Shown here: positions 6,055-49,860 of the stretch, piece after piece
How the letters are laid out: every line of letters starts with the position of its first letter
Numbering within the stretch: the stretch's first letter is position 1
Assembly: GCA_034670305.1 (NCBI GenBank)
Contig: JAXMNT010000039.1
Coordinates: 1-64,000 of the forward strand
DNA: 64,000 bases
Direction: 5' to 3'
From: Deltaproteobacteria bacterium
GTDB lineage: Bacteria; Myxococcota_A; Polyangia; Polyangiales; Houyiibacteriaceae
Notes under the pieces: model-generated
The model's input: only the letters and a program-made list of their open reading frames with translations
Databases searched by the model: none
What the model was told of the DNA's origin: nothing
Made by a program: the position numbers and the translations under genes

Positions 6055-6924
6055 CTACGCCGACGTGGGCGCGGGCGTGCTCAGTGGCTGACTTGGTCGC
6101 AGGGTCTTCTTGTGGAGCCAGTCGACCGCCCTCTGGGCCGTAGACGCGATCGTGAGAAGGGCACGGGGTTCCGCTCGAAGGACGCGCACCCAGTGGTCGA
6201 GGTACGCCGCGTGCTGAAGTCGTCCAGGGATCTGGAACTCGGCACACAAGAACGCGCTGCCGATCTCCGCGACGAGTTCCTCTTTGGCGTAGTTGTCGTC
6301 GGCGAACGCACCACCGAACTTCCGCGCGAGACGCGTGCGGTGACCGGTGGCATGCACGAGTTCGTGGAGCAGGGTGGCGTAGTAGCCCCCGAGGTCTTCG
6401 AATGCTTCGCGTGGAGGAACCTGCACTCGATCCGCTTCGAAATCGTAGAACGCATGCCCTCCTGCTTCACGTACTTCGAGTCCGGTGCCGCGTACCCACT
6501 GGTCCAGTTTGCCGACGGGTCGTTCTGGCGGTGTCGGCATGGCAAGCCCCGCACACTGGTCGATGTTGAACACGACTGCGTACCCGCTCACCCAACGGCT
6601 CGGAGTCTCGTGGGTCTCGTCGACTTGGCGCCAGAACACAACCGGTGTTCCTCGCTCGCCCCTCTTCACATGGCCTCCCAGTTTCAAGGCTTGTCGGAAG
6701 GTGCACCACCACCGTTGGGTGTGGCCTCGAGCGCGCATCGCCAACCACAGTGAGAGGACGTTGATGCCGCGGTAGACCTGTCCGGTGGCGAGGCTGGCCG
6801 GCAGACCAGCATCGGCCGCCCAAGGTGCGATCCAGGGAGGAACGTCCCCCGCCTCCAGTGCCTCGATGAGCCCCTGTGCGACCTCCATCTGTTTCGCGCT
6901 TCGCGCGCTCTTGCGTCTCGGCAT
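6055..6924 (-). CDS. ardC: ArdC family antirestriction protein (ssDNA-binding plus zincin-like domain)
   Basis: PPWIAPW, YRGIN, TFRQA..GGHVKRGERG, VFNIDQ, TLLHELVHATGH, YAKEELVAEIGSAFLC, HAAYLDHW motifs; RBS GGAAGGAGG. Confidence 0.9.
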   Translation of the reverse strand: MPRRKSARSAKQMEVAQGLIEALEAGDVPPWIAPWAADAGLPASLATGQVYRGINVLSLWLAMRARGHTQRWWCTFRQALKLGGHVKRGERGTPVVFWRQVDETHETPSRWVSGYAVVFNIDQCAGLAMPTPPERPVGKLDQWVRGTGLEVREAGGHAFYDFEADRVQVPPREAFEDLGGYYATLLHELVHATGHRTRLARKFGGAFADDNYAKEELVAEIGSAFLCAEFQIPGRLQHAAYLDHWVRVLRAEPRALLTIASTAQRAVDWLHKKTLRPSQPLSTPAPTSA

Positions 6925-7102: not shown

Positions 7103-7921
7103 TCAGAACTCGATCGTCCAGGGTTCGACTTGGCTGCCTGCGTGGACCTTGCCTTCGATTGTGGTTCGGACGGTTCGGTCGAGGGTGCCGATCCAGTAGC
7201 CGGGGGCGATCTCGTCGGTGGTCACTCCGTCGGCTTCGAAACGCACGGCGATGGGCTCGGCGGCGTAGATCGCGATCTGGCGCGGTGAGGGTTTGCGGAA
7301 GAGCACGGCTTCGAGGTCGATGGCGGTCTTGTCGTCGACCGCTTGTTTGGTGCCGACGACCTCACCCTCGCTCGGGTCGCGCATGTGGCCACCGCTCGCG
7401 GCGGCGAGCTCGATGGACGGAGGCTGCTCGGATTCGATTCGGACCATCGCGCGGACGAGTTCGCACTCTTCGGGATGCGCGTGCAGCCACCCGGCGACGT
7501 GCGCGGCCGCGAAGCCATCGAGCTCGCCGCGCAGCAGTCGGCTGAGCCTTCTCGGGCTCGGACGGATGGCGTCGGCGGGCCAAACGGTCTTGGCGATGCT
7601 CGTGACGTTGCCGTTCGATGCGTGCGGCGATCCGAGCGCACGGAGCACGGCCTCTCCGACACCGCGCACGAGCTCGTCTTCACAATGCTCGAGCGCCGCT
7701 GCAACCGCGGTGCGGACAGCGCTTCTCTCAGCGTTCCGCTCATCGGCGCCATCGAGCGCGTCGAGGACCACCAGCACGAGCACCCAGCCCGCCGGCTCGA
7801 TGAGATCTTCGATCGCTTCTTCGGAGGCATCGTCCTCCGCGTACGCTCGGGCGAACGCATGGGCAGCCTCCACGGCGGCGGCCCACTTCGCCGCCAGTGC
7901 TTCGAGACGGACGTCAGTCAT
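7103..7921 (-). CDS. Putative soluble anti-sigma factor / protease substrate
   Basis: Overlaps the sigma gene stop (ATGACTGA). Central RRLSRLLRGELDGFAAAHVAGWLHAHPEEC resembles a degenerate zf-HC2/ZAS anti-sigma domain; ELAAAS linker then a beta-rich C-terminal domain. Function inferred. Confidence 0.55.
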   Translation of the reverse strand: MTDVRLEALAAKWAAAVEAAHAFARAYAEDDASEEAIEDLIEPAGWVLVLVVLDALDGADERNAERSAVRTAVAAALEHCEDELVRGVGEAVLRALGSPHASNGNVTSIAKTVWPADAIRPSPRRLSRLLRGELDGFAAAHVAGWLHAHPEECELVRAMVRIESEQPPSIELAAASGGHMRDPSEGEVVGTKQAVDDKTAIDLEAVLFRKPSPRQIAIYAAEPIAVRFEADGVTTDEIAPGYWIGTLDRTVRTTIEGKVHAGSQVEPWTIEF

Positions 7922-8705
7922 GGCTGGCCTCATCGCGGTCCAGCCGGGAAACGGACGTCGGTTCCTCGGCATACTGAACAGACGTGCGGTCCTTGGTTCG
8001 ACTGACACCGTGGTCCGCGCGCCGTCCTGAGACCAGAAGTGCCGAGGTTTCTTCGACAAATCGCTTCGTGGCCGCCGAGATCCCCGCTTCGAGCAGCCAC
8101 CCCTCCAGGGTTGGCAGGAGCACCTGATCTCGGCCCCGCTCGATCCACTTGTACAGCGTTCCCTCCGAGGGTGGGTTCTGCAGCTGCTCGAGGATCTGCG
8201 GCGCGGTCAGATTGCGCACCTTGCGGAGGATGGCGACCTCGGCCTGTTGGCGCATCTTCGCGCGGTGGGCCGGCCGTTTGGCCGCGGTCTCCACGAACTC
8301 GTCGACGCGATCGAGCAGTGCATCGAGTAGGTGCTCGAGCTCGGCTTCGGTCTGTTCGTCGGGACCCTCGTTCGCTGGGGCAGCGATGAGGTCCAGCGGG
8401 TCCAACGTGTCCGTGCCGGTCGAGCGCTTCCCACCGAGCGGGCTCCGTTTGCGTTTGCGGATGAGATCGATTCGGCTCCGCTCGTACACCTTGCCGACCC
8501 AGCCCTCGGCCTCCCCGACGGTGGTTCCGAGAAACGTCGGGGCGGCGCGGACGCACTTGACGGTGGTCATCTGACGGACCTCGTCGTGTTCCCGGCGCCC
8601 ACGAAAGCGTCGGTCGAGCCACGCGTAGATCGCGCGGACGGCGTCGTCGACGGAGCGCGGCTGCCGCTCCCGTCTGAGCACGTCCAAGGCGTCCAAGAGA
8701 GTCAC
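7914..8705 (-). CDS. ECF-like sigma-70 family RNA polymerase sigma factor
   Basis: Region 2-like HDEVRQ...EAEGWVGKVYERSRIDLIRKRKR; region 4-like LTAPQILEQL..PSEGTLYKWIERGR. GTG start at 8705 (TACCCT-N6-GTG), or ATG 8744 overlapping the upstream stop. Confidence 0.7.
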   Translation of the reverse strand: MTLLDALDVLRRERQPRSVDDAVRAIYAWLDRRFRGRREHDEVRQMTTVKCVRAAPTFLGTTVGEAEGWVGKVYERSRIDLIRKRKRSPLGGKRSTGTDTLDPLDLIAAPANEGPDEQTEAELEHLLDALLDRVDEFVETAAKRPAHRAKMRQQAEVAILRKVRNLTAPQILEQLQNPPSEGTLYKWIERGRDQVLLPTLEGWLLEAGISAATKRFVEETSALLVSGRRADHGVSRTKDRTSVQYAEEPTSVSRLDRDEASHD

Positions 8706-10648: not shown

Positions 10649-10658
10649 GGTCTGTTGG

Positions 10659-10685
10659 GACGGTCCACGGGCTGCATTACTGACA
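10659..10685 (-). promoter_or_regulatory. ECF-type promoter motif copy 1 (Lon-TPR/sigma/anti-sigma operon)
   Basis: Minus strand TGTCAG-N17-CGTC, 10 nt before ATG 10648. Confidence 0.7.
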
Positions 10686-10752
10686 GAAGCTGGCTGCGTT
10701 GTCTGTCTCGTGGCGGCCAGCGACGCCATTCTGTCAGATTTGTCAGGCGTCC

Positions 10753-10779
10753 TGTCAGACCTGGGAAGACGCACACGTC
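10753..10779 (+). promoter_or_regulatory. ECF-type promoter motif copy 2
   Basis: TGTCAG-N17-CGTC upstream of RBS GGGAGG and ATG 10802; two extra TGTCAG half-sites at 10732 and 10741. Confidence 0.7.
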
Positions 10780-10801
10780 TTGCCACCCAAAGGGAGGACG
10801 T

Positions 10802-11245
10802 ATGGCGGAGAACTTCACGTTGATCGAGGATGAGGAGATCGTGGCCGAGTGGGCCAATCTCGTGCTGACCAACCGGCGCATCGTCGGGTATGGGAGCGAT
10901 GGAGGCCTCGTCATGTTGCCGATCTGCAACATCCACTCGGCCGGGTTCGTCACGGCCTCGGCGGACTGGCTGATCGTGATGGTCCTGCTGGCCGTCCTGT
11001 GTGCGGCGGGTGCGGCGGTTGGTGGCGCCACCTCGTCGAGCCCCGACGGCTACGTCGCGGTCGCTGTGCTCTGCGGATTGCTCGCGGTGGGAGCACTCGC
11101 CGCTTGGCTCTCCTCGAAGTCGACGGTGGTCGCGGTCACCGCGGGCAACCAGCGGGTCGCGGTGCTCATGAAGGGGCACGAGCAGCAGGGCGCCGTCGCG
11201 TTCTGCCGCAGCGTCATCGGCGCGGTGTACAGCTCGAGGGATTGA
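10802..11245 (+). CDS. Small two-TM membrane protein with PH-like (bPH/GRAM-like) segment
   Basis: RBS GGGAGG; LVLTNRRIV motif; two hydrophobic helices. Confidence 0.7.
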   Translation: MAENFTLIEDEEIVAEWANLVLTNRRIVGYGSDGGLVMLPICNIHSAGFVTASADWLIVMVLLAVLCAAGAAVGGATSSSPDGYVAVAVLCGLLAVGALAAWLSSKSTVVAVTAGNQRVAVLMKGHEQQGAVAFCRSVIGAVYSSRD

Positions 11246-11279
11246 GGCGGTGCCGGTCTCCAAACGCCGAGACGCGCCG

Positions 11280-11306
11280 TGTCAGAACCTCGATGCGCCG
11301 CGCGTC
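11280..11306 (+). promoter_or_regulatory. ECF-type promoter motif copy 3
   Basis: TGTCAG-N17-CGTC, 9 nt before ATG 11316. Confidence 0.7.
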
Positions 11307-11315
11307 CTCTTGGAC

Positions 11316-12863
11316 ATGCACCCGACGCCACTCGCTCCGCTCTTCTCGCATCTCGTCGTAGGCCCGGCGCTCGGTTCGCCCGGCGCTTCGCCGGTCCGCT
11401 TCTTCCCCCTGCGCTGGCCCGGCGCATCCGACCGCGCGGCCGTCGCGCTCCCGTTTGCAGAAGCGGTCGCGCGGGGTGCGAGTGCCCGCGAGCTCTCTGG
11501 CAAAGCGAAGGTCGGGTTCATCGCGCTTCACAATCCGCTGCCGGTACCGGTCGTGCTCTTTCAGGGCGACCTGGTGGTGGGATGCAAACAGGATCGCATC
11601 GCGGTCCACACCGTGGTGGTGCCTCCGAACACCACGCTCGAGGTCGAGGTGTGCTGCGTGGAAGCAGGGCGCTGGCAAGACGAGCGTCGAGACGAGCGCT
11701 TCGACGTGAGCGACTTCTCCGCGCCGGGTTCGATGCTCCGCGCGATGAAGACCCACGTGCGTGCAAAAGAGCCGGGCGCTCGACAAGAGCGCGTCTGGAA
11801 AGACGTCGCGGAGATCGCCTCCGAAACCCGGACCCGTACGTCGACCGGGACCCTCACCTCGTCGTTCGAGCTGCTGGGCGTCCCGATCGAAACGCTTCTC
11901 GAGGGCGTGCAGCCAGTGGCCGACCAGGTCGGGGTGGTGGTCGCGATCGGCGACCGCATCGAACACATCGTCGTCGTCGACGCCCCGGCGACCTACGCGC
12001 ACCTGCACCGACGGCTCGCACGCGGCCACGCGCTCGACGTGCTTCGTCGACCACAACGCCCATGCAGCGTCACCGCGCCCGAGGTCACCGAAGTGCTCCG
12101 CTGCGCGGGCGCCTCGCCGATGTCCCTCGAGGAGAACCAGTCCCGACTGCGCACCGACGACCCACTGCCATCTCACGGCAAAGACTCTCGGCGGATCCGC
12201 TTCGAAGGCGACGCGACCACGCACGCGGGCACGTTCGTACACGTCAGTCTCCACACGCCGACCCGCGAGAGCCTCTCCGAGCGTGGCTTCCGTGTGCGCA
12301 CGTCGATGACCGATCCGATCGGCGTCGGCTGGGTCGACCTCGCTGGGCTCATCGGTTCAAAGGAAGGCCATGGCAAAGGCCGCCTCGGCCTCACCTTCGC
12401 ACCGGGCAAACGCGCGTCGAGCCTGTCTGGAACCAGCTGGGTCCGCGACCTCGAGCTCGATCTCCTCCGACTGCGCCACGCCCACCGTGTCGAACACCTG
12501 GTGTGCCTCGTGACCGACCGTGAGCTGCGCGCGTTGCACATGGGCGGCTACGTCGACGCCGTCCGCCGCCACGGTGTGACATTGCACCGGCTCCCGATCG
12601 TCGACGGCCGGGTGCCGTGCGACCTCGACGCGTTGCGGTCCGTGCTCAGCGAGCTCGCCGACATCCTGCGCGCAGGCGGAACCGTGGTCGCACACTGCCG
12701 GGGAGGCCTCGGCCGTGCCGGCACCTTCGGCGCGTGCCTCGCGATGCAACTCGGAGCGAGTGGAAGCGAAGCGCTCGCCCTCGTGCGCGCCGCCCGCGGC
12801 CACAACTGCCCCGAGAACGACACCCAGCGCCGCTTCGTGCTCGACTTCGCAACCGCCGCGTAG
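11316..12863 (+). CDS. ARPP-1 (DUF6569-like) domain fused to a CDKN3-like Cys-based protein phosphatase
   Basis: N..PVVLFQGDLVVGCKQDRI...VCCVEAGRW (ARPP-1-like); GRLGLTFAPGK..WVRDL, LPIVDG, HCRGGLGRAG (CX5R), PENDTQ. Confidence 0.8.
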   Translation: MHPTPLAPLFSHLVVGPALGSPGASPVRFFPLRWPGASDRAAVALPFAEAVARGASARELSGKAKVGFIALHNPLPVPVVLFQGDLVVGCKQDRIAVHTVVVPPNTTLEVEVCCVEAGRWQDERRDERFDVSDFSAPGSMLRAMKTHVRAKEPGARQERVWKDVAEIASETRTRTSTGTLTSSFELLGVPIETLLEGVQPVADQVGVVVAIGDRIEHIVVVDAPATYAHLHRRLARGHALDVLRRPQRPCSVTAPEVTEVLRCAGASPMSLEENQSRLRTDDPLPSHGKDSRRIRFEGDATTHAGTFVHVSLHTPTRESLSERGFRVRTSMTDPIGVGWVDLAGLIGSKEGHGKGRLGLTFAPGKRASSLSGTSWVRDLELDLLRLRHAHRVEHLVCLVTDRELRALHMGGYVDAVRRHGVTLHRLPIVDGRVPCDLDALRSVLSELADILRAGGTVVAHCRGGLGRAGTFGACLAMQLGASGSEALALVRAARGHNCPENDTQRRFVLDFATAA

Positions 12864-12909
12864 AGCGGCCGTGTCGCCAGACGGGGCCCGTCCCTGTCGC
12901 AACCGAACG

Positions 12910-12936
12910 TGTCAGTTCGGCGGTCGCCCATTCGTC
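12910..12936 (+). promoter_or_regulatory. ECF-type promoter motif copy 4
   Basis: TGTCAG-N17-CGTC, 8 nt before GTG 12945. Confidence 0.7.
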
Positions 12937-12944
12937 CCCTTGAG

Positions 12945-14753
12945 GTGCACGCCGATCCGATTCTCTTGCTGGCCGTCGTACTCGCGGTCTCTGCTTGCGC
13001 CGACCCGCCCCCGATCAGGGACGCCCGCGAAGTCTCGTCGCCTCCGGCCGGCTTCACCCGCCTCTCGGACTCCGATGAGGACGCGCGTCAATGGGCGGAC
13101 GAGCAATGGCTCGAGGTCGAACCTCCGGCGCCACCACCCGCCACCCCCACCTGGGTGCGCACTCGGTCGAATGCCGTCGCGCTTCGACCCGACGCGACCC
13201 ACACCGGGACCGCTTGTGGCCGGCTGCGCCTGGGCGTCGTCGCACGCTTCCTCCAGCGTCGCGGCACCCGTGTGCAGATTGAACTCGGCGAGGGGCTCCT
13301 CGTACGGGCGTGGGTGGACGCCTCCGAGGTCGAAATCGGGTCGGGTGAGCCCCCTCCAGATCCCAACCTCGCGCACTCGACGCTCCTCGCCACAGCGACC
13401 GCAGGTGCACAACTCGGCCCACTGCTCACCGTGCCGGCCGGCACGCTCGTGCGCTGCCACGACGTCGCGGTCGCGCGGGTCGACGGAGAACATGCGGTGC
13501 GTCCTGCCGGCGAGCTCGGAGGCGGCATGTCGGCGCTCGTTTCCGGACCGCACGACACGGCGTACGTCTCGGGTCGGCTGGACGGCGTCACTTCGCTCAC
13601 CGTGGGCGGGCGCGCCCGCGTCGTCGACGGGGAGGCCCGGCGGATCTTCGCCACCGCGAGCGAAGACCTGAACATCGGTCGGGTCTCGGGTGGCTACGTG
13701 GTGATCGTGCTCGAGCGTGTGGTCGACTGGGTCCGGGTGCGGGTGCCCGGCGCGGTCGCACTCACCGGGTACATGAACCCGAGCGCGCTCCTCTCGACAA
13801 ACGAGTCGTTGCCGACGGACGCGGTCTCGGTGCCGGGCAACCTGGTGGCGCCGTCCGAGATCGGGTCACTGGTCGCGGTCCGCCCGGCGACGGAGATCCA
13901 GCTCGCGGGCGGAGCCGTCGCGCGGGTCGCGGGCGGCGGTGCCTTCGCCCACGTCCTCTCGGTCGATCGGGTCAACCGCACCGTCGACGCGCTCGTCGCC
14001 GCCAACGACGGGTTGGTGATCCGTGGCTCGGTCGCGCTGCGCGACTTCGATGTGCCCGAAGCCGAGCCCGAGACGCAGCGGGCCCGTCGAACGGTGCGGC
14101 CGCCGCCCGGTCCGCCACCTCGAGTGCGTAGCGCCCACGGCAACGGTGCACCGGGTCCGGTCGTCCGCGCGCTCTATTCCGTGGTCCGCCTGTGGTGCGT
14201 GGATCCGGAGGGTCGCATCGCGACGGGCTCCGCGACCATTGTCACCACCGGAGGTCGGCTGCTCACCAACTTCCACGTGGTGGGTCGCGGCGGGATACTC
14301 ACGCGACCGAACTGCGCCGTCGGACCACTGCGGGATCCGCGACAACCCGTGGAACCCGAATGGGTGGCCCGCGTGGTCGCGCACGACGCCGCGGGTGACC
14401 TCGCGGTGCTGCAGGTTCGCGAAGCGCTCGAAGGGCATCGGCTCCCATCCACATTCAATCGACTGCGCGCGGGCAGCGACCCGGTGATCGGTGACCGCGT
14501 CTACGTGCTCGGCTTCCCAGGCGCGTCCTCCTCGACGACCCATCTCACGAGCGGCGCCGTGTCTGGTTTTCAGCGCATGGAGGGAGCCGACTGGGTCCGC
14601 ACCGACGCGCAGATCAACCCGGGCAACAGCGGCGGCGCGATGATCGATGCCCGCGGTCGCCTGGTCGGGGTGCCGACCGCGCTCCTTCGCGTCGACGATC
14701 CGGTGGGCCTCGCCCGACCCATCAGCGCCGTACCTCGGTCGTGGCTGCGATGA
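12945..14753 (+). CDS. Lipoprotein with SH3-like repeats and C-terminal trypsin-like (S1C) serine protease
   Basis: Lipobox LAVSAC; catalytic triad LLTNFHVV, DLAVL, TDAQINPGNSGG. Confidence 0.85.
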   Translation: MHADPILLLAVVLAVSACADPPPIRDAREVSSPPAGFTRLSDSDEDARQWADEQWLEVEPPAPPPATPTWVRTRSNAVALRPDATHTGTACGRLRLGVVARFLQRRGTRVQIELGEGLLVRAWVDASEVEIGSGEPPPDPNLAHSTLLATATAGAQLGPLLTVPAGTLVRCHDVAVARVDGEHAVRPAGELGGGMSALVSGPHDTAYVSGRLDGVTSLTVGGRARVVDGEARRIFATASEDLNIGRVSGGYVVIVLERVVDWVRVRVPGAVALTGYMNPSALLSTNESLPTDAVSVPGNLVAPSEIGSLVAVRPATEIQLAGGAVARVAGGGAFAHVLSVDRVNRTVDALVAANDGLVIRGSVALRDFDVPEAEPETQRARRTVRPPPGPPPRVRSAHGNGAPGPVVRALYSVVRLWCVDPEGRIATGSATIVTTGGRLLTNFHVVGRGGILTRPNCAVGPLRDPRQPVEPEWVARVVAHDAAGDLAVLQVREALEGHRLPSTFNRLRAGSDPVIGDRVYVLGFPGASSSTTHLTSGAVSGFQRMEGADWVRTDAQINPGNSGGAMIDARGRLVGVPTALLRVDDPVGLARPISAVPRSWLR

Positions 14754-14768
14754 AGTGTGCGCGCGACG

Positions 14769-14795
14769 CGTCAGTTCGTGGAGGGGCCGCGCGTC
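14769..14795 (+). promoter_or_regulatory. ECF-type promoter motif copy 5
   Basis: CGTCAG-N17-CGTC, 9 nt before ATG 14805. Confidence 0.65.
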
Positions 14796-14804
14796 TTGCC
14801 GGGC

Positions 14805-16532
14805 ATGGATGAAAGAGACCCGACGACCACGCGCTACTTCTTCGAACACGTCGGGGAGAGCGCCGGCCCGTTCACCCTCGCGCAGCTCCGGCCGCACGTG
14901 GCCACGGGCGACCTGCAACCGACCACCCGGATGTTGATCGAGGACACGTACGAGTGGGCCCCGGCCGAGACCCTCGTCCCCTCGTTGTTCACCAAGGTCC
15001 GCCCCCGTTCAGGGACGCGGTCCCGGCAGAGTCTCTACGTCGGCCTCGGCCTAGGCCTGCTGCTCGGCGCCGCCGGCCTGACGGCCTTCGCCCTGCTCCG
15101 CGACGGGGGTGGCGCGGCGGCGAACCTCGCGGACGCGGACCTGATGGCGTCGCTCCCTCCAGACGTCGATTCCGTGCAGCTCGGCGACTTCGCGGCCGAC
15201 CCGCTCCTCATCCGCGGCTCTCAACTGGCCGGCATGGGGGGCGGCTTCGACTTGGCCGGCGCGCTCCTCGATCCGGACGACGACATCGTCGACGCGCTCG
15301 TGCGGCCCGACCTGCGTTCTGAGCTGCAACGGTCGGTCGGCGTCGCGTCCGAGCTCGACGGCGTCGGCCTCGTGCGCATGGGCGACACCACGCTCCTCTT
15401 CTTCCACGGCGGGCTCTCGGCGGGCTCCGAAGGCCTCACCCTCACGAACAGCCGCGACCACACGTTCAGTGGCCTCGCGGGCCGGTGCTCGCACGAGGAG
15501 GGCGTCGCCGAGTGCAACGACGGAACCGCGCTCGTCCGAAAGGGCCAGTGGAGCCTGTACGCGCCGCGCCCGACGGTCGAGTCCATGGCGCGCGACTGGG
15601 TCCGCGCCGACCGCCCCGAGACCACCAACATGCAGATCGCGCGCGCGCTGCTAGCGCGGGTCGAAGGCCGCGCCGACGTGCACATCCTGGTGAAACCCGA
15701 GAGCGTGCGCCCGAGCCTCGCCGCGCCGTGCGTCGCGATCCTCGGCCTCGCGGGCCTCATGCGCTGCGTCCCCTCCGGACTCGACGCGACCTTCGCGCGG
15801 CTCAGCGGCCTCGCCCGCGGCATCCTCCGCGAGACCGACGGCACCGCCCATCCGGATCCGGATCGCTACGAGGTCCGCTTCGACCTGCTCGCGCGCGACG
15901 CCCGCGACGCCGAGTCGATCGCGGCCGAGCTCGATGCGTTTCGCCGCGACTGGCGCGCGCACTTCGACAACACCGGCATGGATCTCGTCGCCACCCTGCG
16001 CGCCGGCACGCTCGAAGACGCAGACTTCGTCGAGAGCCGCTACCGCACCTTCGAGCGCGCGCTCGCCGAGTCGACGATCGAAACCGACGACGTCGCGGTG
16101 GTGTGGACCCTCGCCACCGACCTGACGGAAGCCGAACGCGCCGACGTCGTGCGGCGCCTCGCGACCCGAACCGAGCGCCAGCAGCACGCCACGAACGTCG
16201 TCTCCGCCGTGCTCGAGGGCACCACCCCGGCGCGCGGCGACCTGGTCGCCCTTGTTGGCGAAGAGCGGGCCGACGCCATGCTCTTCCCCCGCGCGACCGA
16301 AGAAGACTGCAACGCCATCCGCGCCCGCGTCGCCGAGCTCATCGCGGCTGGCGTGCCCACCCACCAGTTCGGTCTTCGCTTCGAGCAAGAACAGCGCTTC
16401 GCCGTCGGCACCTGCGTCGGCCGCGCGCTCACGCCCGAAGCCCGCGCGTGTCTCGTCGGCGCGCCGGACTTCGCCGCGATGGCCGCCTGCGAGTTGCCCA
16501 CCCTCACCGCCAAACCCGAGACCGCCCCATGA
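14805..16532 (+). CDS. GYF_2 (DUF4339) domain membrane protein
   Basis: YFFE..GESAGPFTLAQL..GDLQPTT...EWAPAE N-terminus, one TM helix, large extracytoplasmic domain. Confidence 0.7.
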   Translation: MDERDPTTTRYFFEHVGESAGPFTLAQLRPHVATGDLQPTTRMLIEDTYEWAPAETLVPSLFTKVRPRSGTRSRQSLYVGLGLGLLLGAAGLTAFALLRDGGGAAANLADADLMASLPPDVDSVQLGDFAADPLLIRGSQLAGMGGGFDLAGALLDPDDDIVDALVRPDLRSELQRSVGVASELDGVGLVRMGDTTLLFFHGGLSAGSEGLTLTNSRDHTFSGLAGRCSHEEGVAECNDGTALVRKGQWSLYAPRPTVESMARDWVRADRPETTNMQIARALLARVEGRADVHILVKPESVRPSLAAPCVAILGLAGLMRCVPSGLDATFARLSGLARGILRETDGTAHPDPDRYEVRFDLLARDARDAESIAAELDAFRRDWRAHFDNTGMDLVATLRAGTLEDADFVESRYRTFERALAESTIETDDVAVVWTLATDLTEAERADVVRRLATRTERQQHATNVVSAVLEGTTPARGDLVALVGEERADAMLFPRATEEDCNAIRARVAELIAAGVPTHQFGLRFEQEQRFAVGTCVGRALTPEARACLVGAPDFAAMAACELPTLTAKPETAP

Positions 16533-17959
16533 CCCGCATCGCTTCGCGCACCCCCACCGTCACCGCGCTTCTCGACAGCGGCCCTGCGCATCTCGAGAAC
16601 GGCCCTGCGGCTCTCGAGGAGAACACTGCGACTCTCGAGGAGAACACTGCGACTCTCGAGGAGAACACTGCGACTCTCGAGGAGAACACTGCGACTCTCG
16701 AGAACAATACCGCGTGCTCGAGACACACCACGCTCCGCCGAACCGGGACCGCACTTCTGCTCGCGCTCTCGGTCCTCGTTCCGGCCACAGCCGGCTGCGC
16801 CGTTCAGGACGCCTACCTCCGCCACGACGACGAGATCCTCTCGCGGGTCGGCGTGCCGCGCCCAGGCACCGAACGCGCCGCCCGCATCCGCCAGGAAGGC
16901 ACCCACGTCAGCGTCGAAGCCATCCAGCTCTGCGACCGAGTCGAGCGGCTCGAGATCGAACGCACCCACGTCTTCTCGCGACGAAGCCGCAAACCCATGG
17001 TCCCCATCCTCGCCGCGATCGGGGGCGCCGCTGCTGTCGCCTTAGGCGCGTTCGCCATTGTTCGTGCCCCCAACCTGCCCGAGTCCCGCCCTGACCTCGA
17101 GACCGGTTGGACACGCAGCCAAGCGCGCGGGCTCGGAGGCCTGCTCGTCGGAGGCGGAGGCGTCCTCGCGCTTGGGACCGTTGGCCACGCCTTCCGGCTC
17201 GCGCGTGGCGAACGAACCACCGAGACCGTCACCGAAGCCGGCGAGGTCTTGCAAAGCGGCGTCGCCTGCCCCTCACCCATCCCATGGCAGGGCGCCGAGA
17301 TGCGCCTTGGCGCCATCAGCCTCGGCACCACGCCCAGCACCGGCCGCGCCGAGCTCGACCTCGACCTCGCCGTCCTCCCCCGCGACATCGCCGGCGCCCC
17401 ACCGAACGTCGACCTCCGCATCGACGGCCGCACCGTCGGCCAGGTCAACCTCGCCCCCATCCGCCACGTACATCAAGAGCGCGCCTGGCGCGACGCCGGA
17501 CAAGTCCGCTGCGCCGCCCCCGAGCGCCCCGACGACTGCGACGCGCTCAACGCCTACCTCATCCGCTACCCCGACGGCCCGCACGCCACCGAAGCCCGCC
17601 GCATCCTCGAGAGCGCCGCCGGCGCCCTCGTCGAAGCCGCCGCCCGCCGCCGCGCCGAAGCCGAAGAAGCCGCCGCCCGCCTCCGCCAAGCCGCCGCCGA
17701 GAGCATGGCCGCCCTCGAACGCCAACGCGCCGAATCCGAACGCCGCCTCCGAGAAGAAGAACGCGAACGAGCCCGCGCCGAGCGCGAACGAGAAAGAGAC
17801 AGAGCCCGTCACATCGCCGAACAAAGAGAAGCCGAACAACGCCACCGCCAAACAAGAGAAAGAACCCAAGCCCGCCGCGCATGCCACGCCACCTGCCGCC
17901 AAACCTGCGGAGGCAACCAAGCCTGCCAAACCGCCTGCCAAACCACCCAATGCCAGTAG
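16529..17959 (+). CDS. Putative lipoprotein/membrane protein with coiled coil and Cys-rich C-terminus
   Basis: ATGA overlap with the upstream gene; LEENTAT repeats; ATAGC lipobox; two TM segments; E/R-rich coiled coil; CHATCRQTCGGNQACQTACQTTQC. True start may lie downstream. Confidence 0.65.
   Translation: MTRIASRTPTVTALLDSGPAHLENGPAALEENTATLEENTATLEENTATLEENTATLENNTACSRHTTLRRTGTALLLALSVLVPATAGCAVQDAYLRHDDEILSRVGVPRPGTERAARIRQEGTHVSVEAIQLCDRVERLEIERTHVFSRRSRKPMVPILAAIGGAAAVALGAFAIVRAPNLPESRPDLETGWTRSQARGLGGLLVGGGGVLALGTVGHAFRLARGERTTETVTEAGEVLQSGVACPSPIPWQGAEMRLGAISLGTTPSTGRAELDLDLAVLPRDIAGAPPNVDLRIDGRTVGQVNLAPIRHVHQERAWRDAGQVRCAAPERPDDCDALNAYLIRYPDGPHATEARRILESAAGALVEAAARRRAEAEEAAARLRQAAAESMAALERQRAESERRLREEERERARAERERERDRARHIAEQREAEQRHRQTRERTQARRACHATCRQTCGGNQACQTACQTTQCQ
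16592..16717 (+). repeat. 21-bp in-frame tandem repeat (CTCGAGGAGAACACTGCGACT x4 exact plus 2 degenerate)
   Basis: Directly visible; encodes LEENTAT. Confidence 0.9.
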
Positions 17960-18070
17960 CCGCGCTCTAGACAGCGGGAGGGTGTCTGTCGATTCGTGAA
18001 GGACATCACGACTCGCGGTCGTACTCTCCCTTCGCAGGCGTCTTACCCCGCAGTAGCCCAAGAGAAAGCC

Positions 18071-19357
18071 ATGACCTGGTTCTTCACCGACCTCGACCCA
18101 CGCGCGAAGATCGCGGGGTCACGCGACCCGTTGGGTTTTCAGCAGCCGTGGACGGCGCTCGGGAGGGAGTTCGTCGCAACACTGACCACGGTCACCGTTT
18201 CGGTGCGCGGCTTCACGACCCTGATGCTTGGGCTCCACTTGGCAGACGAGCTGATTCGGGACGGCGAACCCGAAGAACATCGGGCTCGGTTCTTCCTCGA
18301 ATTCGAACAAGTCGCTGGATACGCGCGTCACCTGAGCCACGGAGTGTCGTCGCTCGGCACCCAACGGATCCGCAAGCGCCTCTCGCAGTCGAGTACCGTT
18401 CCGCTCGGCTTGGGGTCCGATGCCGCGATCCTCTCGGATCAACGCACCTACGGGCTCTGGGGCCTGTACTCCAGCTCAGCTCGGGCGAGTGGTCTCGTGG
18501 ACCGGAACGAGCAGCGTCCAACCAAACGTGCGCGTGACCACCTTCGCGAGGTTGTTCTGCCGCGCGCACATGCGGTCCATCCCAAGTTGTGGTCGGACCT
18601 TCTTCGGCTCATTCGACCGGAGAAGGGCGACCTCTACACGAAGGGGCGCCACCGCGACGTCGTCTCCTCGCTCGGAGAGGCGTTGTCACCCGAACTCCTG
18701 GAGACCGAGCGTGAGTTCTACCTCCAGACGCTCGTGGAAAACGACCTGGGCGACGACCCGACACACGGGCGTCAGCGCTTGCTCTGGCACCTCATGGAGG
18801 ACCTGAGCAAGGAGTTCCCTTGGGACAAGGGACCCACCCGTTCCGAAGTCGAGGAACTCGCCAAACGAGCTGCGGAGACGGACGAGGGGCTCGCGGACTC
18901 GCTCCAGGCGGTCCTCGTGCTCGACCCCTTCTTCGCCCTGGTCTCCAGGCTCTTCTCCTTGGCGCTCCAAGCGAGCGGCACACGCGCCGAAGTCATTGCG
19001 ACCATTCGGGGTCAGCGGGCCGCCTTCGGCGCGATCGATCCGGCCGCCCTCGAGAGCCGACGGTCGCGTTTGGGAGGAGACCAGGCGGACCGGCTCGTCG
19101 CTCTCGGGCACGCGCTTCGGGATGGGGACTTCGAACGCTCGCTCGATCTGATCCTGGAACAGAACAGCAGCGTGATGCGTGCTCGCGGCGGATCCGCGTG
19201 GGCCGAGTCGCGCGGTGATCGCATCGAGGTGCGACTGCGGTCCGAACCGTTGATCGCGCCGGCAGAAGCAGATGTGAACGCGGACCTCTTCTACCCCTAC
19301 TTCCTGTCGTCGCTGAAGACAGTGGGTGGTGCGGTTCGCACGGGCAAAGAGACATGA
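18071..19357 (+). CDS. Defence-associated hypothetical protein, first gene of the PLD-helicase module (ZacA/DUF6361-like, tentative)
   Basis: N-terminal SRDPLG...W...LTTVT and YGLWGLYSS motifs; ATGA-coupled to the PLD gene. Confidence 0.6.
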   Translation: MTWFFTDLDPRAKIAGSRDPLGFQQPWTALGREFVATLTTVTVSVRGFTTLMLGLHLADELIRDGEPEEHRARFFLEFEQVAGYARHLSHGVSSLGTQRIRKRLSQSSTVPLGLGSDAAILSDQRTYGLWGLYSSSARASGLVDRNEQRPTKRARDHLREVVLPRAHAVHPKLWSDLLRLIRPEKGDLYTKGRHRDVVSSLGEALSPELLETEREFYLQTLVENDLGDDPTHGRQRLLWHLMEDLSKEFPWDKGPTRSEVEELAKRAAETDEGLADSLQAVLVLDPFFALVSRLFSLALQASGTRAEVIATIRGQRAAFGAIDPAALESRRSRLGGDQADRLVALGHALRDGDFERSLDLILEQNSSVMRARGGSAWAESRGDRIEVRLRSEPLIAPAEADVNADLFYPYFLSSLKTVGGAVRTGKET

Positions 19358-21402
19358 GTGCGATTCCCACACAGGTCCTCTCCGACGCCTTCACCGAGGC
19401 GGTTGGTGCGTCGCGGGGGCGGGTCGTCGAGGCCGCGTTGTTCACGACGTTCTCGCTCCAACCAGACTTCTTCGAACAGGAGGTGCTGCCAACACTCTTC
19501 GATGCGCCGTTCTCCACCGCGCCCAACGTCAAACTGGTGCAGCTCGAGGAAGCGCTCCGGAAAGGCGCTCGCATTGCGGTCTTCTACGACGGGAACGCGC
19601 TCGAGACGACAGGGGTGGCGCCTGCACTCGACGTCGACCGAATCGCGATGGCGCGGGCACGCGGCTGCTTTCACCCGAAGCTCTCGCTCGTGCTGGTCCG
19701 CGAGGGAGACACACGCAGCCTCGTCATGCTCGTCTCCAGCGCGAACCTCACGCGGAGTGGCTGGTGGGACAACGTGGAGGTGAGCCACGCGTGCGAGATC
19801 CACCAGGCGACCAGTTCACACCACCGAGACCCACTACGGCAGGTCCTCGATACCTTGCGAGGCGAGACCCGCGCGAAGGGCTCGCACGTGCCCGCGCTCG
19901 AGGCGATCGACGGGTTTCTGAAGGATCAGGTGACGGCCTCCAGCCAGTGGTCCCGGACGGCGCCGCTTCATCCGCGACTGTTCGTCGGCGACGAGACCCT
20001 CCCGACCTTCATCCGCGATGCGCTGGGCAGTTCGACCGAAGACCTTCATCTCGAGATCGTGAGTCCCTACTTCGACCAATCGGATGCAGGCGCACTCAAG
20101 GCGCTGGTTGAACGACTGAAGCCTGCGTCGACCACCCTGTACCTGCCTCGCGACGACGCCGGGCGAGCCGACTGCCGGCCGGAGTTGTACGACGCGGTAC
20201 TCGCGCTCGGCTGTCGGTGGGGCAAGTGGGTCACCGACATTCGGCGTCGCTCCAGTCAGCAGAGCGAGCGAATGACGGAGCGCTTCGTTCACGCCAAGGT
20301 CTACCGCTTTTGGTCCAAGAGTCCTCGGCGTGAGGTCGTGGTGCTCGGCTCGGCCAACCTCACCCGAGCCGCGCACGCCAAGGGCATCGCGGGGAACGTC
20401 GAAGCGAGCGTGCTCCTCGAGACCGCGAACCCTTCGAAGTTGAGCTCGTGGTTTGAAGTCGACGAGAAGCGTCCGCTCGAGTTCGTCGAAGAGCCCGATG
20501 CCGAAGACGACGTGGCATCGGGGCTCCCCGTCGCACCGATCGACATTCGCTACTCCTGGGCGACAGGACGAGCCGCACTGCACTGGAGTGGGGACCCACC
20601 AACCGGCCAAGTCGAACTTCGCATGCTCGGCTCGTCCCTTGGAGCTGAGTTCGACGTCGATGAGGGCTGGAACGATCTGCCTTCGGAGGTCGCTGCCAAA
20701 CTCGAGCCGCCGCTCAAGCGCACGTCTTTCGTGAGTCCGTTCCTGATAGACAGCACGGGTGAAGCCAAGGAGCACCAAGCCGTCCTCGTCCGCGAAGAGG
20801 ACATGGCGCACAAGCCTTCGCTTCTGTTCGAGTTGAGCCCTGAAGACATCCTTCGCTACTGGTCCTTGCTCTCGGAGGATCAACGCAACGCGTTCATCGA
20901 AAACGAAGGCCACTCGGAGCTCGTCAACGTCGGGCTGGCCGCGGCGCGGGCGCGGTTGGAGGGTTCGGGTGAGAACTTCTTCACGCGTTTCGCCGGGATC
21001 TTCCACGCCTTCGAACGCCTCGAAACGGGCATCCGGAGCGCGTTGTCGGCTGAGAACTGGAAGGACGCGGAGTACCAGCTGTTCGGCAAGAAGTACTACT
21101 CCCTCCCCAACCTCCTCTCGAAGCTGCTCAAGGAGGAAGGGGGTTGGGACTGGGTCGAGCGCTACCTCGCCTTGCTCACCGCCCGAGACATGACGGCGCG
21201 CCTTCGCCGCGACCATCCCGCGTTCTGGAGCGACCACGAACGAGACGCTGCCCAACTGGATCTGCAGCTCGAAAAGGGAGACGCACTTTCCAAGAAGCTC
21301 GGCCTGGGTGACGACCAAGACGGGCGAGCCTTCCTCACCTGGTTTGAAGCTCAGTTCAGGAGCGACTTGCCAGCGGATGGCGCATCGGATGACGCATCGT
21401 GA
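19354..21402 (+). CDS. Phospholipase D-superfamily nuclease with two HxK motifs
   Basis: TTFSL, FHPKL...SSANLT, VSPYFD, VHAKVY...GSANLT...NVEA. Confidence 0.85.
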   Translation: MSAIPTQVLSDAFTEAVGASRGRVVEAALFTTFSLQPDFFEQEVLPTLFDAPFSTAPNVKLVQLEEALRKGARIAVFYDGNALETTGVAPALDVDRIAMARARGCFHPKLSLVLVREGDTRSLVMLVSSANLTRSGWWDNVEVSHACEIHQATSSHHRDPLRQVLDTLRGETRAKGSHVPALEAIDGFLKDQVTASSQWSRTAPLHPRLFVGDETLPTFIRDALGSSTEDLHLEIVSPYFDQSDAGALKALVERLKPASTTLYLPRDDAGRADCRPELYDAVLALGCRWGKWVTDIRRRSSQQSERMTERFVHAKVYRFWSKSPRREVVVLGSANLTRAAHAKGIAGNVEASVLLETANPSKLSSWFEVDEKRPLEFVEEPDAEDDVASGLPVAPIDIRYSWATGRAALHWSGDPPTGQVELRMLGSSLGAEFDVDEGWNDLPSEVAAKLEPPLKRTSFVSPFLIDSTGEAKEHQAVLVREEDMAHKPSLLFELSPEDILRYWSLLSEDQRNAFIENEGHSELVNVGLAAARARLEGSGENFFTRFAGIFHAFERLETGIRSALSAENWKDAEYQLFGKKYYSLPNLLSKLLKEEGGWDWVERYLALLTARDMTARLRRDHPAFWSDHERDAAQLDLQLEKGDALSKKLGLGDDQDGRAFLTWFEAQFRSDLPADGASDDAS

Positions 21403-24400
21403 GGACGATCGAGCGCCTGGATCTTGAGACCGTCCGCAAGTTGATCGACTTTGGTGGAGGCCGCGTGTCTCGCGCGGTCGCACGCGACCAGGAGATGGGT
21501 GCGACCGCCATCCACAACATCCTGGTCGACCGAGCTCATGCGTACTTGGCCGACGAGGTCGGGATGGGGAAGACCTACGTCGCGCTCGGCGTGGTCGGTC
21601 TGCTGCGGTTCTTTCATCCAGGGATTCGCGTCCTCGTCATCACCCCCCGCCACAACATCCAGGCGAAGTGGGGGCGCGAGCTGCGCAACTTCGTCCGGAA
21701 CAACTGGCGCAGCAGCGACCAACGCGTCCGAGGCTTCGATGGGCAGCCTGCCGTCCCGGTCATTCAACCGGGCTCGCTGCTCGAGTGGGCGCGCCAGTGT
21801 GTGGTCGATCCCGAGCGCGACGTCGTGCTCCGGATGAGTTCGTTCGGCTGGGCGCTCCAGAACGACGGCGGCCCATCGGGCACGTGGCGTGAGCAACGTG
21901 AGCGAATCGAACGACTGGCGCCGGTGCTGAGGGGCCATTTCGTCGACCCTACCGACCGCGACAAATCCAGGTTCAAGGCGCGGGCCGCGCTGGCGGTGAA
22001 TGCACTGCTTCCTCACTACGACCTCGTCGTCATCGACGAGAGCCATCACTTCAAACACGGACGCGCATCGCAAAGCGCCCGCAACCGGATGCTCGCCATC
22101 ACGCTTGGTGCGCACCCGCCGCGCGACGTCGGTGTAGACATCGAGCCGGGGCCGCTCTTCGAGCGTCGCTTTGACCGGCTTCTGTGCCTCTCGGCAACGC
22201 CGGTGGAGGAGGACTTTCGCCAGCTCTTCAACCAGTTGGATCTTCTGGGCTTGGCCGGCCCGTCGGCGGACCTCAGACCACTCGACGATCCCAAGGCATC
22301 CGACGCTGACAAGCGGACTCTCGCAAGGCGCTTCCTGGTCCGCCGCCTGACGACGCTTGCCGTCGACGGGGGATCCTGGACCCGCAACATGTACCGCCGT
22401 GAGTGGCGCGAAGGCGGCATGGCGCGCTTCGATGAGCCCATGAAGATTCCCGGGGTTCGTCAACGCCTCATCGTCGCGCTGGTCCAGCGAAAGCTCGCCA
22501 CGCTGCTGAATCGTGAGACCTCGGGCCGGCGGTTTCAGATCGGAATGCTCGCTTCGTTCGAGAGCTTCGAGGAGAGCGCGCGGCCAGTTTCCGCAGAGAC
22601 CGCCGACTCGGCGTTTGACGACGCGGATCAAACCGAAGATGTCGAACAGCGTCGGGGTGTCGACCGCGCGCTCGTCGCAGAGATCGCGGACTCGTACCGG
22701 AAGACGTTCGGCGCGTCGCTGCCACATCCGAAAATGGATGCTGTCGTGGCCAGTCTCTCGAACGCGTTCGCAGAATCCAACAAAGCGCTCGTGTTCGTAC
22801 GTCGGGTGAAGTCCGTTCCTGAGTTGGTCTTCAAGCTGGGAGACGGGTACGACGCTTGGCTCCAGGGGTACCTCGAAGCGCTCCTTCCGCCTTCGCTCCA
22901 CGGCGCAATGCGCAAGGTCTGGGCGGCGTACCACGCGGAGCGGCGCGAGAAGCTCCACGCCGGCGGTCTCAACGACGAAGCCTCCGACCAGGCCAACGAT
23001 ACGTTCTTCGCATGGTTCTTCCAGTCTCAGACCCATCGCGGCGACCTCTTGACCGGCACCAAGTTCCGCGAGAACCGGTTGATGGAATCGAGTTCGACGT
23101 ACTCGACGCTTTTCGAAGACGACTACCTCGGAGCCATGTTCGGCTTCCCCGCGAACCTCCTCGACACCCTCGCGTCTGAAGTCGGGCGCCCGAGCGAAAC
23201 GGTCCGTGAGCAGCTTCTCGCCGAAGCGTCGCACCGCCTGGCACGGTGGTCGAAGCCGGGCCGCCTGCACAACCATCACGCGGTGCAGGAAGCCGGGCTG
23301 CGTTTGCTCGCGAAGTCGAAGAGTCCGCGGGCAGATGAAGCCCGCACGATGGCCAGCGACTTGTATGGTCCGCCGCCCAGCCGGTTGCGGGTGCCGCGCG
23401 TCGTGGCGATCGACGTGGACGCGTACCTCGGCGCCACGACCTTCTTCACGGAGCTCCGCAAGCGGCCCGCGTTGCAACGCGCACTGTGGCCGGTCGAAGA
23501 CGCGTGGGCCGGCCGAACAGCCTTCCGTTCCCGAGAGTTGCGGCGGGAGTTGCTCGCGGCGACCGTCCGCCTTGGCCACTCCATGGTCGATCTGTATGCG
23601 TTGGCCGTCGCGGACGCAGGCACGCTCGAGATGGGGGGCTCACGTCTGCAGGACGATCGAAGTGCACGGCTCATCACCGCATTCCTCGACCGACTGGAGT
23701 CACTCCGAGGTGTCGAGGGCCTGCACGCCTACTCCGAGATGAGCTCGGTCGGGCGTCACCACGAGCACATTCTTGCTGTGAACTTCTCCGATGCGCGTGA
23801 GGTGCCGCTGAGCGAACTGCGCACGTACTTCGGTACGGCGCTCGGCAACCAAGTGCCCATCGCCGGGATGCACGGGCGCGCCACGGAGCGCGCCGTTCGC
23901 CACTTCCGCATGCCGGGCTACCCGATGGTTCTCGTCAGCACCGATGTGCTCCAAGAGGGCGAAGACCTCCACAGCTTCTGTTCCCGCATCGTCCACTACG
24001 GGGTGAGCTGGACACCATCATCGATGGAGCAGCGCACCGGCCGAATCGACCGAATCGGCTCTCAGGTACATCGACGCCTCGAGGGCGGGGAGGGAACCCC
24101 GAGTGACGACGCGCTCCTGCAGGTCCACTTTCCCCACCTTCGAGAAACGGTCGAGCGTGAACAAGTCCGGGTCGTTCTCGAACGCATGAACCGGTTCATG
24201 GAACTCATGCATACAGGTTTGGCTGCGGAGTCCCACGACCCAACTGTGGACGTGGCAGCAGAAGCTCTCCGTCGACCCCCTTTGGTGGGCTCCGTCCGCG
24301 CACAGCTCTCGACGGCGTTCCCCGTGACCGACGACATGCTCCAGGCGAGCTTGGACGATCGGTCCGTCGACACTGAGATCAATGCCGCTCAGTCTGTAGG

Positions 24401-49094: not shown

Positions 49095-49095
49095 A

Positions 49096-49860
49096 TTGGA
49101 TCTGCGCGACGTATCGCTCGGCACACTGAGGGCACTGCGCGCTGCGCTTGCGGGCCGCGCACTGGCGACACCGGTGACCGAGGCCGGCCTCAGTGGGGCG
49201 GGACTCGGCCGCAGCGCTCAGGCATTGGCGGCGCGACTGAGCGGATTCGACAGCGCTGCGCTAGAAACACTGCTCGACTGCGTGATCGCAGAGCGTGAAC
49301 ATCCGGGCGCGGCACTGGAGCTCGTGTGGACGGGCCCGGGAGGGCCGGCCGACCCCGTCCGCGACACCGGCGTCGTCATGCGTCAGCTCTTCGGCTTGGC
49401 GAGGGCTTCGGTGCTCGTCGCAGGCTTCCGCATCGACGACGGCGAGCAGCTCTTTCAGCCACTCCATCGCGTGATGACCGAACACGGCGTCGACGTCACC
49501 TTCATCGTCGACATCCACGCGAGCGCGCGGACTGAGGGCATGGCGGAAGCGGTGGCGCGGGCCGAGATCGATCGCGTGTTCGAGAAGCAGTGGCCGTTCG
49601 AAGGCGAACGACCGGCCATCTACTTCGACCCCCGCACCGCGGTGCGCGGCAGCGTGGACCGACCTTGGGCCAGCATGCATGCCAAGTGCATCGTCGTGGA
49701 CCGCCGTCACACCCTCATCACCAGCGCCAACTTCACCGACCGCGGCCAAACCCGGAACATCGAACTCGGCGTACGCATCGACGACCCCGACTTCGCCACC
49801 GAAGTCGACACCCGCTGGCGCACCCTCATCCGCCAAGGCCACCTCCTCCGCGCGAACTGA
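49096..49860 (+). CDS. drmC: DISARM phospholipase D-like nuclease DrmC
   Basis: LVWTGP, RDTGVV, MHAKCIVVD...TSANFT.RG..RNIELG; in-frame TTG just after the drmB stop (start approximate). Confidence 0.88.
   Translation: MDLRDVSLGTLRALRAALAGRALATPVTEAGLSGAGLGRSAQALAARLSGFDSAALETLLDCVIAEREHPGAALELVWTGPGGPADPVRDTGVVMRQLFGLARASVLVAGFRIDDGEQLFQPLHRVMTEHGVDVTFIVDIHASARTEGMAEAVARAEIDRVFEKQWPFEGERPAIYFDPRTAVRGSVDRPWASMHAKCIVVDRRHTLITSANFTDRGQTRNIELGVRIDDPDFATEVDTRWRTLIRQGHLLRAN

Follow-up and report, generated by a model that had tools for sequence, protein, structure and literature searches.

The 64,000-nucleotide (nt) stretch analysed here (the window), from a deltaproteobacterium of the Polyangiales (assembly GCA_034670305.1, contig JAXMNT010000039.1), encodes an overlapping three-gene operon on the minus strand. 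Its products are a Lon-type protease with tetratricopeptide repeats (Lon-TPR), a divergent extracytoplasmic function (ECF)-type sigma factor and a putative soluble anti-sigma factor, and copies of a bipartite promoter-like motif, GTCAG-N17-CGTC, lie within and beside the operon. We consider it probable that this motif is the promoter of the adjacent sigma factor, and that a protease/anti-sigma/ECF cascade runs a DNA-damage and defence regulon. The motif, its co-occurrence with the module genes, the content of the regulon and the domain anatomy of the proteins were computed here, and in relatives carrying the sigma factor up to 35 sites are spread genome-wide, standing before recA, ssb, radA, recN, recJ, sbcD and cas genes.

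The promoter-like motif in the window and the genome

The original prediction described five copies of the motif in which GTCAG and CGTC are always exactly 17 nt apart, four of them near-leaderless at 8-10 nt from a start codon, and read them as ECF-type promoters served by the adjacent sigma factor. All five were recovered with this spacing and these leaders (Table 1), together with two further copies on the minus strand. One of these, within sigma region 2, has no start codon behind it, and the same place is empty in all 51 homologous loci scanned. The strict motif matches seven times in the window against 1.88 expected, a count that none of 100 shuffles reached, while the extended form YGTCAGW-N16-CGTCY matches nine times in the 7.93-Mb genome, with seven of these matches inside 6.9 kb of the window. 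As other spacer lengths of the extended motif yield 0-7 matches per genome (mean 3.5), only 0.003 would be expected per 6.9 kb; in homologous loci, a spacer of 17 gives 70 matches and the other spacers from 10 to 25 give 2-19 (duplicate loci included). Because the motif was derived from the window itself, it is the counts from other genomes that test it independently.

A natural control is provided by a paralog of the gene at 11316-12863 on another contig of the same genome (C18), identical at 471 of 515 residues. The paralog has a motif 8 nt before its ATG, with a spacer one base shorter, and a second motif behind the gene, at the position that corresponds to the 12910 motif behind the window copy. 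Relative to the window copy, both boxes are kept, and the spacer and other flanks have diverged. Contig C18 also holds a 53-codon open reading frame (ORF; locus L001, 5194-5352, plus strand) which ends in CxxC..CxxC, has no Pfam match and starts 8 nt behind a motif. On contig C3 (locus L384, 737-2581, plus strand), a bpMoxR AAA ATPase of the MoxR-vWA-beta-propeller ternary system type starts 8 nt behind a short-spacer motif and is a probable distant regulon member. Within the window, TGTCAG half-sites stand in tandem at 10732, 10741 and 10753 (plus strand), with a -10 box only after the last.

Table 1. Motif copies, module genes and putative local targets (window coordinates)
Feature	Position	Strand	Remarks
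Motif	7980..8007	-	in sigma 3' end, 59 nt before anti-sigma start; conserved; absent from original prediction
Motif	8549..8576	-	perfect copy inside sigma region 2; absent from original prediction
Motif	10658..10685	-	10 nt before ATG 10648 of protease-sigma-anti-sigma operon; proposed positive feedback
Motif	10753..10780	+	22 nt before ATG 10802, with Shine-Dalgarno-like run
Motif	11280..11307	+	9 nt before ATG 11316 (ARPP-1/phosphatase gene)
Motif	12910..12937	+	8 nt before GTG 12945
Motif	14769..14796	+	9 nt before ATG 14805
Putative soluble anti-sigma, 272 amino acids (aa)	7103..7921	-	follows sigma in 42 of 49 loci
Divergent ECF-type sigma, 276 aa	7914..8744	-	family-specific C-terminal RRADAGxPRPxRR tail
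Lon-TPR protease, 635 aa	8741..10648	-	first gene of the overlapping three-gene operon
Target, 147-aa small membrane protein	10802..11245	+	weak DUF6232 match (E 0.002, under cut-off)
Target, ARPP-1 domain fused to dual-specificity/PTP phosphatase	11316..12863	+	Pfam
Target, lipoprotein-like, C-terminal trypsin/HtrA-type protease domain	12945..14753	+	lipobox-like N-terminus read from sequence
Target, GYF_2-domain membrane protein	14805..16532	+	overlaps ORF 16529-17959

Distribution of the module and its motif

The module is present in many related soil and marine bacteria. Of 301 genomes examined in the order, 48 carry the sigma family (our own genome counted; one, G717, is unpublished, and nothing else claimed here depends on it): 30 of 32 genomes in family f33, 6 of 87 in f1, to which the window belongs, and none of 91 in f2. 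In a sample of the phylum, full-length matches were found in 5 of 400 other genomes, all within the same order. From 52 loci fetched, one without the sigma gene and two duplicates were set aside, leaving 49 for analysis. The protease gene lies within the locus in 27 of these 49, and genome-wide every one of 27 sigma-bearing genomes has it, whereas none of 26 sigma-less genomes does (sets hand-picked for size and completeness); the association also holds where the gene is unlinked to the sigma gene.

The motif follows the same pattern. A copy at the 3' end of the sigma gene, before the anti-sigma gene, is kept in 38 of 49 homologous loci, in both coding and intergenic positions; the VS-x5-TS peptide found in many sigma tails is this promoter motif in translation. 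Eight of the remaining 11 loci carry a CGAC variant (GTCAGT..CGAC), which in six lies 8-9 nt before an ATG. Covariation of the variant -10 box with sigma region 2 was considered and rejected, as no diagnostic region-2 residue was found; we read CGAC as a weakened site rather than a changed specificity, because 22 and 31 CGTC sites persist in two genomes with the variant. Across 26 sigma-bearing genomes there are 388 exact sites (range 4-35, median 12) and 37 matches to the reversed control motif, and across 26 sigma-less genomes 100 (range 1-7) and 67, respectively. Of 115 sites in sigma-bearing genomes, 20 have an ATG 8-9 nt past CGTC, compared with about 1.5 sites for each other distance; in sigma-less genomes 3 of 55 sites do. 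Genome comparison thus supports the near-leaderless spacing, and the adjacent sigma factor as the reader of the motif and as the factor that would direct RNA polymerase to it, in line with the original prediction; the start sites that the latter derived from this spacing are putative. A second sigma paralog is found in three to four genomes (among them G647, G658 and G686), and in two loci (L084, from G647, and L109) the motif also stands upstream of the sigma gene itself. In a tree of the sigma family (49 rows, midpoint root), the sigmas of f1 grouped weakly.

Regulon content in relatives

Regulon content was approached from the sites and, separately, from the genes. The site-first set comprised 115 of 121 sites in five sigma-bearing genomes (G616, G647, G634, G653 and G686), with 111 downstream ORFs scanned for families at E ≤ 1e-12, and its sigma-less counterpart 55 of 56 sites in ten genomes, with 50 ORFs. 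Repair or recombination families account for 20 of the 111: RecA, SSB and SbcD-like phosphoesterases (three each), RadA-like, SMC/RecN-like, DHH/RecJ-like and SNF2 proteins (two each), and single DnaB, RecC and UvrD proteins. A looser threshold adds four RecN/SbcD calls. The sigma-less set yielded one such ORF in 50, a helicase whose site lies inside an ORF. A further 61 ORFs behind sites were scanned in four other genomes (G764, G730, G810 and G640) and in the module loci. Among these were Cse1, two Cas3, Cas4/Cas1, Cas10, three SbcD, SbcC, RecA, SSB and RadA, as well as a DUF2397 protein, a methylase, AbiEi, ArdC and two ARPP-1 proteins. ARPP-1 genes stand behind the motif in G764, G730 and G634, which makes this family, also encoded in the window, a recurrent regulon member.

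The gene-first tests used genomes whose repair genes had not been inspected, and for recA counted sites within 300 nt. Eleven of 20 sigma-bearing genomes had such a site before recA, and none of 20 sigma-less genomes did (30 of 36 and 30 of 38 recA loci examined, respectively); the site always stood at one paralog, and with f1 left aside it was present in 11 of 14 sigma-bearing genomes. The corresponding counts were 9 of 14 and 0 of 7 for radA, and 12 of 14 and 0 of 13 for recN; opposite-strand controls gave 0-1. For the recA ORFs behind the motif in loci L201 (G647) and L137 (G640), the match covers no more than the first 83-119 positions of the profile, so that a frameshift or insertion may interrupt these two copies. 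Replacement of LexA by the sigma factor was also considered and can be ruled out, since 50 of 53 genomes, from both groups, encode LexA. The sigma regulon therefore runs beside SOS, which suggests a second, sigma-factor-driven response to DNA damage.

Domain anatomy of the three proteins

The protease combines an N-terminal Lon (S16) proteolytic domain, without an AAA+ module, with a MalT/LGN-like TPR superhelix. Family scan, structure model and fold search agree that residues 257-634 are TPR helices, and none of the three found a SAVED cyclic-nucleotide sensor there. The model (predicted local distance difference test, pLDDT, 90) has fold matches to Lon and to MalT/LGN-type TPR proteins, in keeping with a Pfam TPR_12 match, Lon matches in the PDB and Lon_C in 16 of 21 homologs. 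Residues G156, S158 and K200 are invariant across homologs, S158 and K200 forming the Lon Ser-Lys dyad. We propose that this protein is a sensor-protease.

The sigma factor is divergent and has no named family; Sigma70_r2 is weak in the window copy (E 0.012) and present in 47 of 60 homologs, and Sigma70_r4_2 in only two of the 60. Its profile matches structures of mycobacterial SigE, SigH and SigL, with positions 27-213 aligned to SigE, and in its DxxR motif D93 and R96 are nearly invariant or invariant. Altogether 102 homologs were found; those with names are annotated as hypothetical or sigma24-family proteins and come from Polyangiaceae, Sandaracinus and Myxococcales. The CASP-sigma model NF041236 is weakly matched by two of seven sigma sequences (E 1e-5, far under cut-off). 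The gene had been placed at 7914-8705, but its start lies more likely at 8744, as the ATG there overlaps the protease stop codon, and the database entry (P0004, 276 aa) and a 72% homolog (P0005) start at that codon.

The model of the 272-aa protein comprises a helical N-domain, a degenerate ZAS-like segment (about 113-163), a linker and an Ig-like beta-sandwich C-domain. The linker, at 170-176, is of low confidence in the model and predicted to be disordered, and carries L172-A173-A174-A175; a hydrophobic-Ala-Ala sequence occurs there in all 37 homologs. An HxxxCxxC zinc motif just upstream of the linker is found in 6 of the 37. When the sigma factor was modelled with residues 1-175, the complex scored 0.88, and the best of three controls 0.02; the mark for this score is reached by 116 of 157 solved pairs and 2 of 215 mismatched ones. 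At least 77% of contacts recur between runs, the partner pLDDT is at least 79, and the modelled interface sets residues 113-163 against sigma region 2. The protein is thus likely to be an anti-sigma factor, with the complex model supporting binding. It has no family in Pfam (zf-HC2 included) or NCBIfam and no sequence relative in the PDB, and a lead to a zf-HC2 cluster in the Atlas stands at 0.83 only. Whole-model fold searches gave no clear match, with no CalpT chain among the matches listed; the best of those listed was the gamma-COP appendage (Z 8.1, root-mean-square deviation 3.1, 91 residues aligned).

Proposed mechanism and its alternatives

In the mechanism that we propose, YGTCAGW-N16-CGTC would provide the -35 and -10 elements read by the adjacent sigma factor, which the anti-sigma candidate would hold through its ZAS-like segment. 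The TPR repeats would sense a cytoplasmic signal in place of a SAVED domain, whereupon the ATP-independent Lon domain would cut the anti-sigma linker, most likely after L172-A173-A174. Both the cut and its consequence are envisaged on the precedent of CalpL: that protease cleaves CalpT at LAA/A, and the LAA degron thereby exposed allows host proteases to free CalpS (bioRxiv 2024.05.08.593097). Here, the LAA C-terminus left by cleavage might mark the sigma-binding half for degradation, and the freed sigma factor would transcribe its regulon. The promoter in the sigma tail could then restore the anti-sigma, a conserved negative feedback, while the site at 10685 might add positive feedback on the protease operon in this genome. 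Autoregulation through that latter site was part of the original prediction. The site does precede the operon here, but an equivalent was found in only two homologous loci (L080 and L095), and the loop that is conserved, in 38 of 49 loci, is the negative one. The further claim of a local regulon likewise describes this genome, where seven of nine sites cluster, but not the relatives with their genome-wide sites. The most likely signal, judging by regulon content only, is DNA damage or foreign DNA, as in a clade of myxobacterial relatives the regulon consists of recombination, repair and anti-phage genes.

Several observations weigh against this interpretation. In our own genome no site precedes recA (two copies), ssb, radA, recN, dnaB, recJ or imuA-like genes, and the defence genes that neighbour the module have none even with one mismatch allowed; recA also lacks a site in all six sigma-bearing genomes of f1, the window's own family. 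At the thresholds applied, no family was assigned to about 40 of the 61 or to most of the 111 downstream ORFs, all of them picked with a codon heuristic. One radA and one recN match are doubtful, having CGAC about 200 nt upstream. In seven of the 26 sigma-bearing genomes the exact sites number just 4-5, a count that sigma-less genomes also reach. The window copy of the anti-sigma candidate has no ZAS cysteines, and the complex may have passed by virtue of a likeness to solved sigma/ZAS complexes. Further, sigma-bearing and sigma-less genomes come mostly from different families, so the counts are not independent, and this phylogenetic confounding leaves formal room for a clade-specific regulator other than the sigma factor as reader of the motif.

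That another factor reads the motif, be it an ECF41-like sigma encoded elsewhere or a clade-specific activator, with the link to our sigma reflecting shared ancestry, nonetheless strikes us as highly improbable. Such a reading can draw on the confounding just described and on the ECF41 consensus TGTCACA-n16-CGTC, which has the same geometry (PMC3426412, accessible part), and a TIGR02957 search of the genome does find an ECF41-like gene, on contig C6 only. However, the -35 element here is GTCAG rather than GTCAC, TGTCAC-N17-CGTC is not enriched in the genome, and no motif lies near the C6 gene; four of five sigma-less genomes tested carry ECF41-like genes and yet have 3-7 sites. The site is also bound to the sigma/anti-sigma junction in most loci, and f1 mostly lacks the sigma, yet the sites of our genome cluster where the sigma gene lies. 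These results, together with the lack of any SnoaL family match in 60 sigma homologs, bear out the earlier view that the sigma is not an ECF41 member and has no SnoaL extension.

Lon-TPR might instead be a scaffold or effector that is co-inherited and does not cut the anti-sigma, release coming from redox change or metal loss at the ZAS-like segment. Cleavage by the protease is itself inferred, HxxxCxxC is kept in a few anti-sigma homologs, and the protease gene is unlinked in several genomes, all of which this reading would accommodate. It sits poorly with the strict co-occurrence of Lon-TPR and the sigma factor, with the invariance of the catalytic Ser and Lys, and with an Ala-Ala linker that is invariant and predicted disordered in proteins that have mostly lost the cysteines, and we regard it as improbable. 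The proposed cascade could also be triggered by phage infection, through a phage protein or nucleic acid acting on the TPR domain, with the repair genes forming part of an anti-phage programme, as in CalpL/T/S, CASP-sigma and DdvS. This version is compatible with the preferred explanation rather than exclusive of it, and is consistent with the Cas, SbcCD, Wadjet-like, methylase, AbiEi and ARPP-1 targets, with the defence island that the module borders in the window, and with the weak CASP-sigma matches of two homologs. As the most recurrent targets across families are the housekeeping genes recA, ssb, radA and recN, and the defence genes beside the module lack sites, we consider a dedicated phage trigger unlikely.

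Relation to known systems

Comparisons with published systems refer to the accessible parts of the sources cited. The module works like CalpL/T/S and Csx29/Csx30/CASP-sigma, and is a member of neither. With CalpL-CalpT-CalpS, the SAVED-Lon system of type III CRISPR, it shares an ATP-independent Lon domain with a Ser-Lys dyad, a two-domain anti-sigma with an LAAA linker and an ECF-like sigma. It differs in having a TPR superhelix where CalpL has a SAVED sensor of cA4, an N-domain that appears ZAS-like where that of CalpT is MazF-like, and a genome-wide regulon with a readable promoter; further, CalpL/T/S lies beside type III CRISPR-Cas, whereas no cas gene was found among the window ORFs scanned. 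With type III-E Craspase (Csx29-Csx30-CASP-sigma; PMC10028731) it shares a TPR-containing protease, an anti-sigma substrate and an ECF sigma with several promoters at its own locus. Csx29, however, is a CHAT protease rather than a Lon protease, and the present module has no Cas7-11 partner and counts core repair genes among its targets. DdvS/DdvA of Myxococcus xanthus (PMC6061681, PMC11506125) is likewise a myxobacterial pair of ECF sigma and zinc-type anti-sigma, which controls CRISPR-Cas and defence genes and has several local promoters with a CGT -10 element. The DdvS promoter, in contrast, is GTAA-n16-CGT, and DdvA is a transmembrane protein with a fused periplasmic TPR-CHAT part, whereas the anti-sigma here is modelled as soluble, without CHAT or TPR, and the protease is a separate Lon-TPR protein.

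Beyond CRISPR, the LexA-independent damage regulators PafBC, DriD, DdrO/PprI and DdiA (PMC12288472) resemble the module as second regulators of recA and repair genes beside LexA, with DdrO/PprI also involving an inhibitor inactivated by a protease. These are WYL or XRE factors that act with the housekeeping sigma, whereas family scans found no WYL or XRE domain in the three module genes or their homologs, and an alternative sigma with its own -10 box would be dedicated to the task here; among the LexA-independent damage regulators named in the accessible part of that source, there is no dedicated sigma. PafBC binds tGTCgg (PMC8635444), which looks similar to the -35 box, a likeness to which we attach no interpretation. 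ECF41, with its -35 TGTCACA and single target, shares the CGTC -10 box and the 16-nt spacer geometry, and is set apart by our GTCAG -35 element, the presence of a likely anti-sigma and the many targets. A term search of the accessible text of one review (PMC7617703) returned no mention of ECF factors. No description of the module was found in the literature, although most subscription papers and supplements were outside the search and an ECF group number may exist (e.g., in the tables of PMC7826278).

The three-gene protease/sigma/inhibitor switch thus appears to be undescribed, and what is new is a protease/anti-sigma/ECF cascade with an unexpected regulon of DNA repair and defence. With a confidence little better than even, we suggest that it represents a new, LexA-independent class of DNA-damage response, in which a TPR-sensing Lon protease destroys the anti-sigma when DNA is damaged or foreign, and the ECF sigma transcribes recA, ssb, radA, recN, recJ, sbcCD and CRISPR-Cas genes. 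It would then stand beside the CalpL/T/S and Craspase cascades as their CRISPR-free counterpart on the chromosome, and might be their source; spreading as a portable unit of three genes, it would have its regulon built anew in every host, the window capturing a small local state. The patchy occurrence of the module suggests that it is portable, with a small local regulon in f1. Lon- or TPR-protease/anti-sigma/sigma cascades are known from CRISPR systems, and their natural regulons are poorly mapped; the present module comes with a promoter that can be read, regulon predictions for dozens of genomes and, on the protein side, a predicted cut site and a catalytic mutant, so that signal and output are both open to direct test. 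It might also supply synthetic circuits with an orthogonal sigma/promoter pair under protease control.

Putative local targets and genomic neighbourhood

In its own genome the regulon is local, small and accessory, and lies at the edge of a defence island. The ORF at 16529-17959, which overlaps the last target gene, has no family and no site of its own. The module sits between ardC and a long run of defence-like genes that includes a PDC-M27-like trio, an SNF2 helicase, a deaminase and UvrD, MrfA-zinc and PLD genes. The ArdC-type anti-restriction gene (ArdcN plus zincin; 6055-6888, minus strand) lies directly behind the anti-sigma gene and has no site, while in another genome, G093, an ArdC gene near the module carries the motif. 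No cas family was found among the 16 and 19 window ORFs scanned, nor among 12 compared with PADLOC (ORFs picked by hand or heuristic), and a single-protein scan of the genome's contigs gave one weak, unrelated match only.

Three genes at 17996-25322 (plus strand), encoding a protein with no known role, a PLD-domain protein and a helicase, match PADLOC PDC-M27A/B/C (and ZacB/C) and constitute a candidate anti-phage system. At 34016-39294 (plus strand), where GC content is lower (about 60-62%), a 1032-aa ORF without a Pfam match precedes a 727-aa ORF of the adenosine-deaminase family, a pair which may resemble RADAR-type defence. A UvrD helicase, a 1441-aa ORF, an MrfA zinc-binding ORF and a PLD ORF follow in a row at 41417-49857 (plus strand), an arrangement that is presumably DISARM-like. 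The window also holds a MYXO-CTERM match at cut-off, which together with the origins of the named sigma homologs indicates a myxobacterial lineage, and four tandem repeats, at 16605-16702, 57188-57272, 60745-60972 and 61702-61895, with units of 21, 14, 6 and 12 nt, respectively. The 21-nt repeat lies in the long upstream part of ORF 16529-17959, where it is translated into a repeated peptide.

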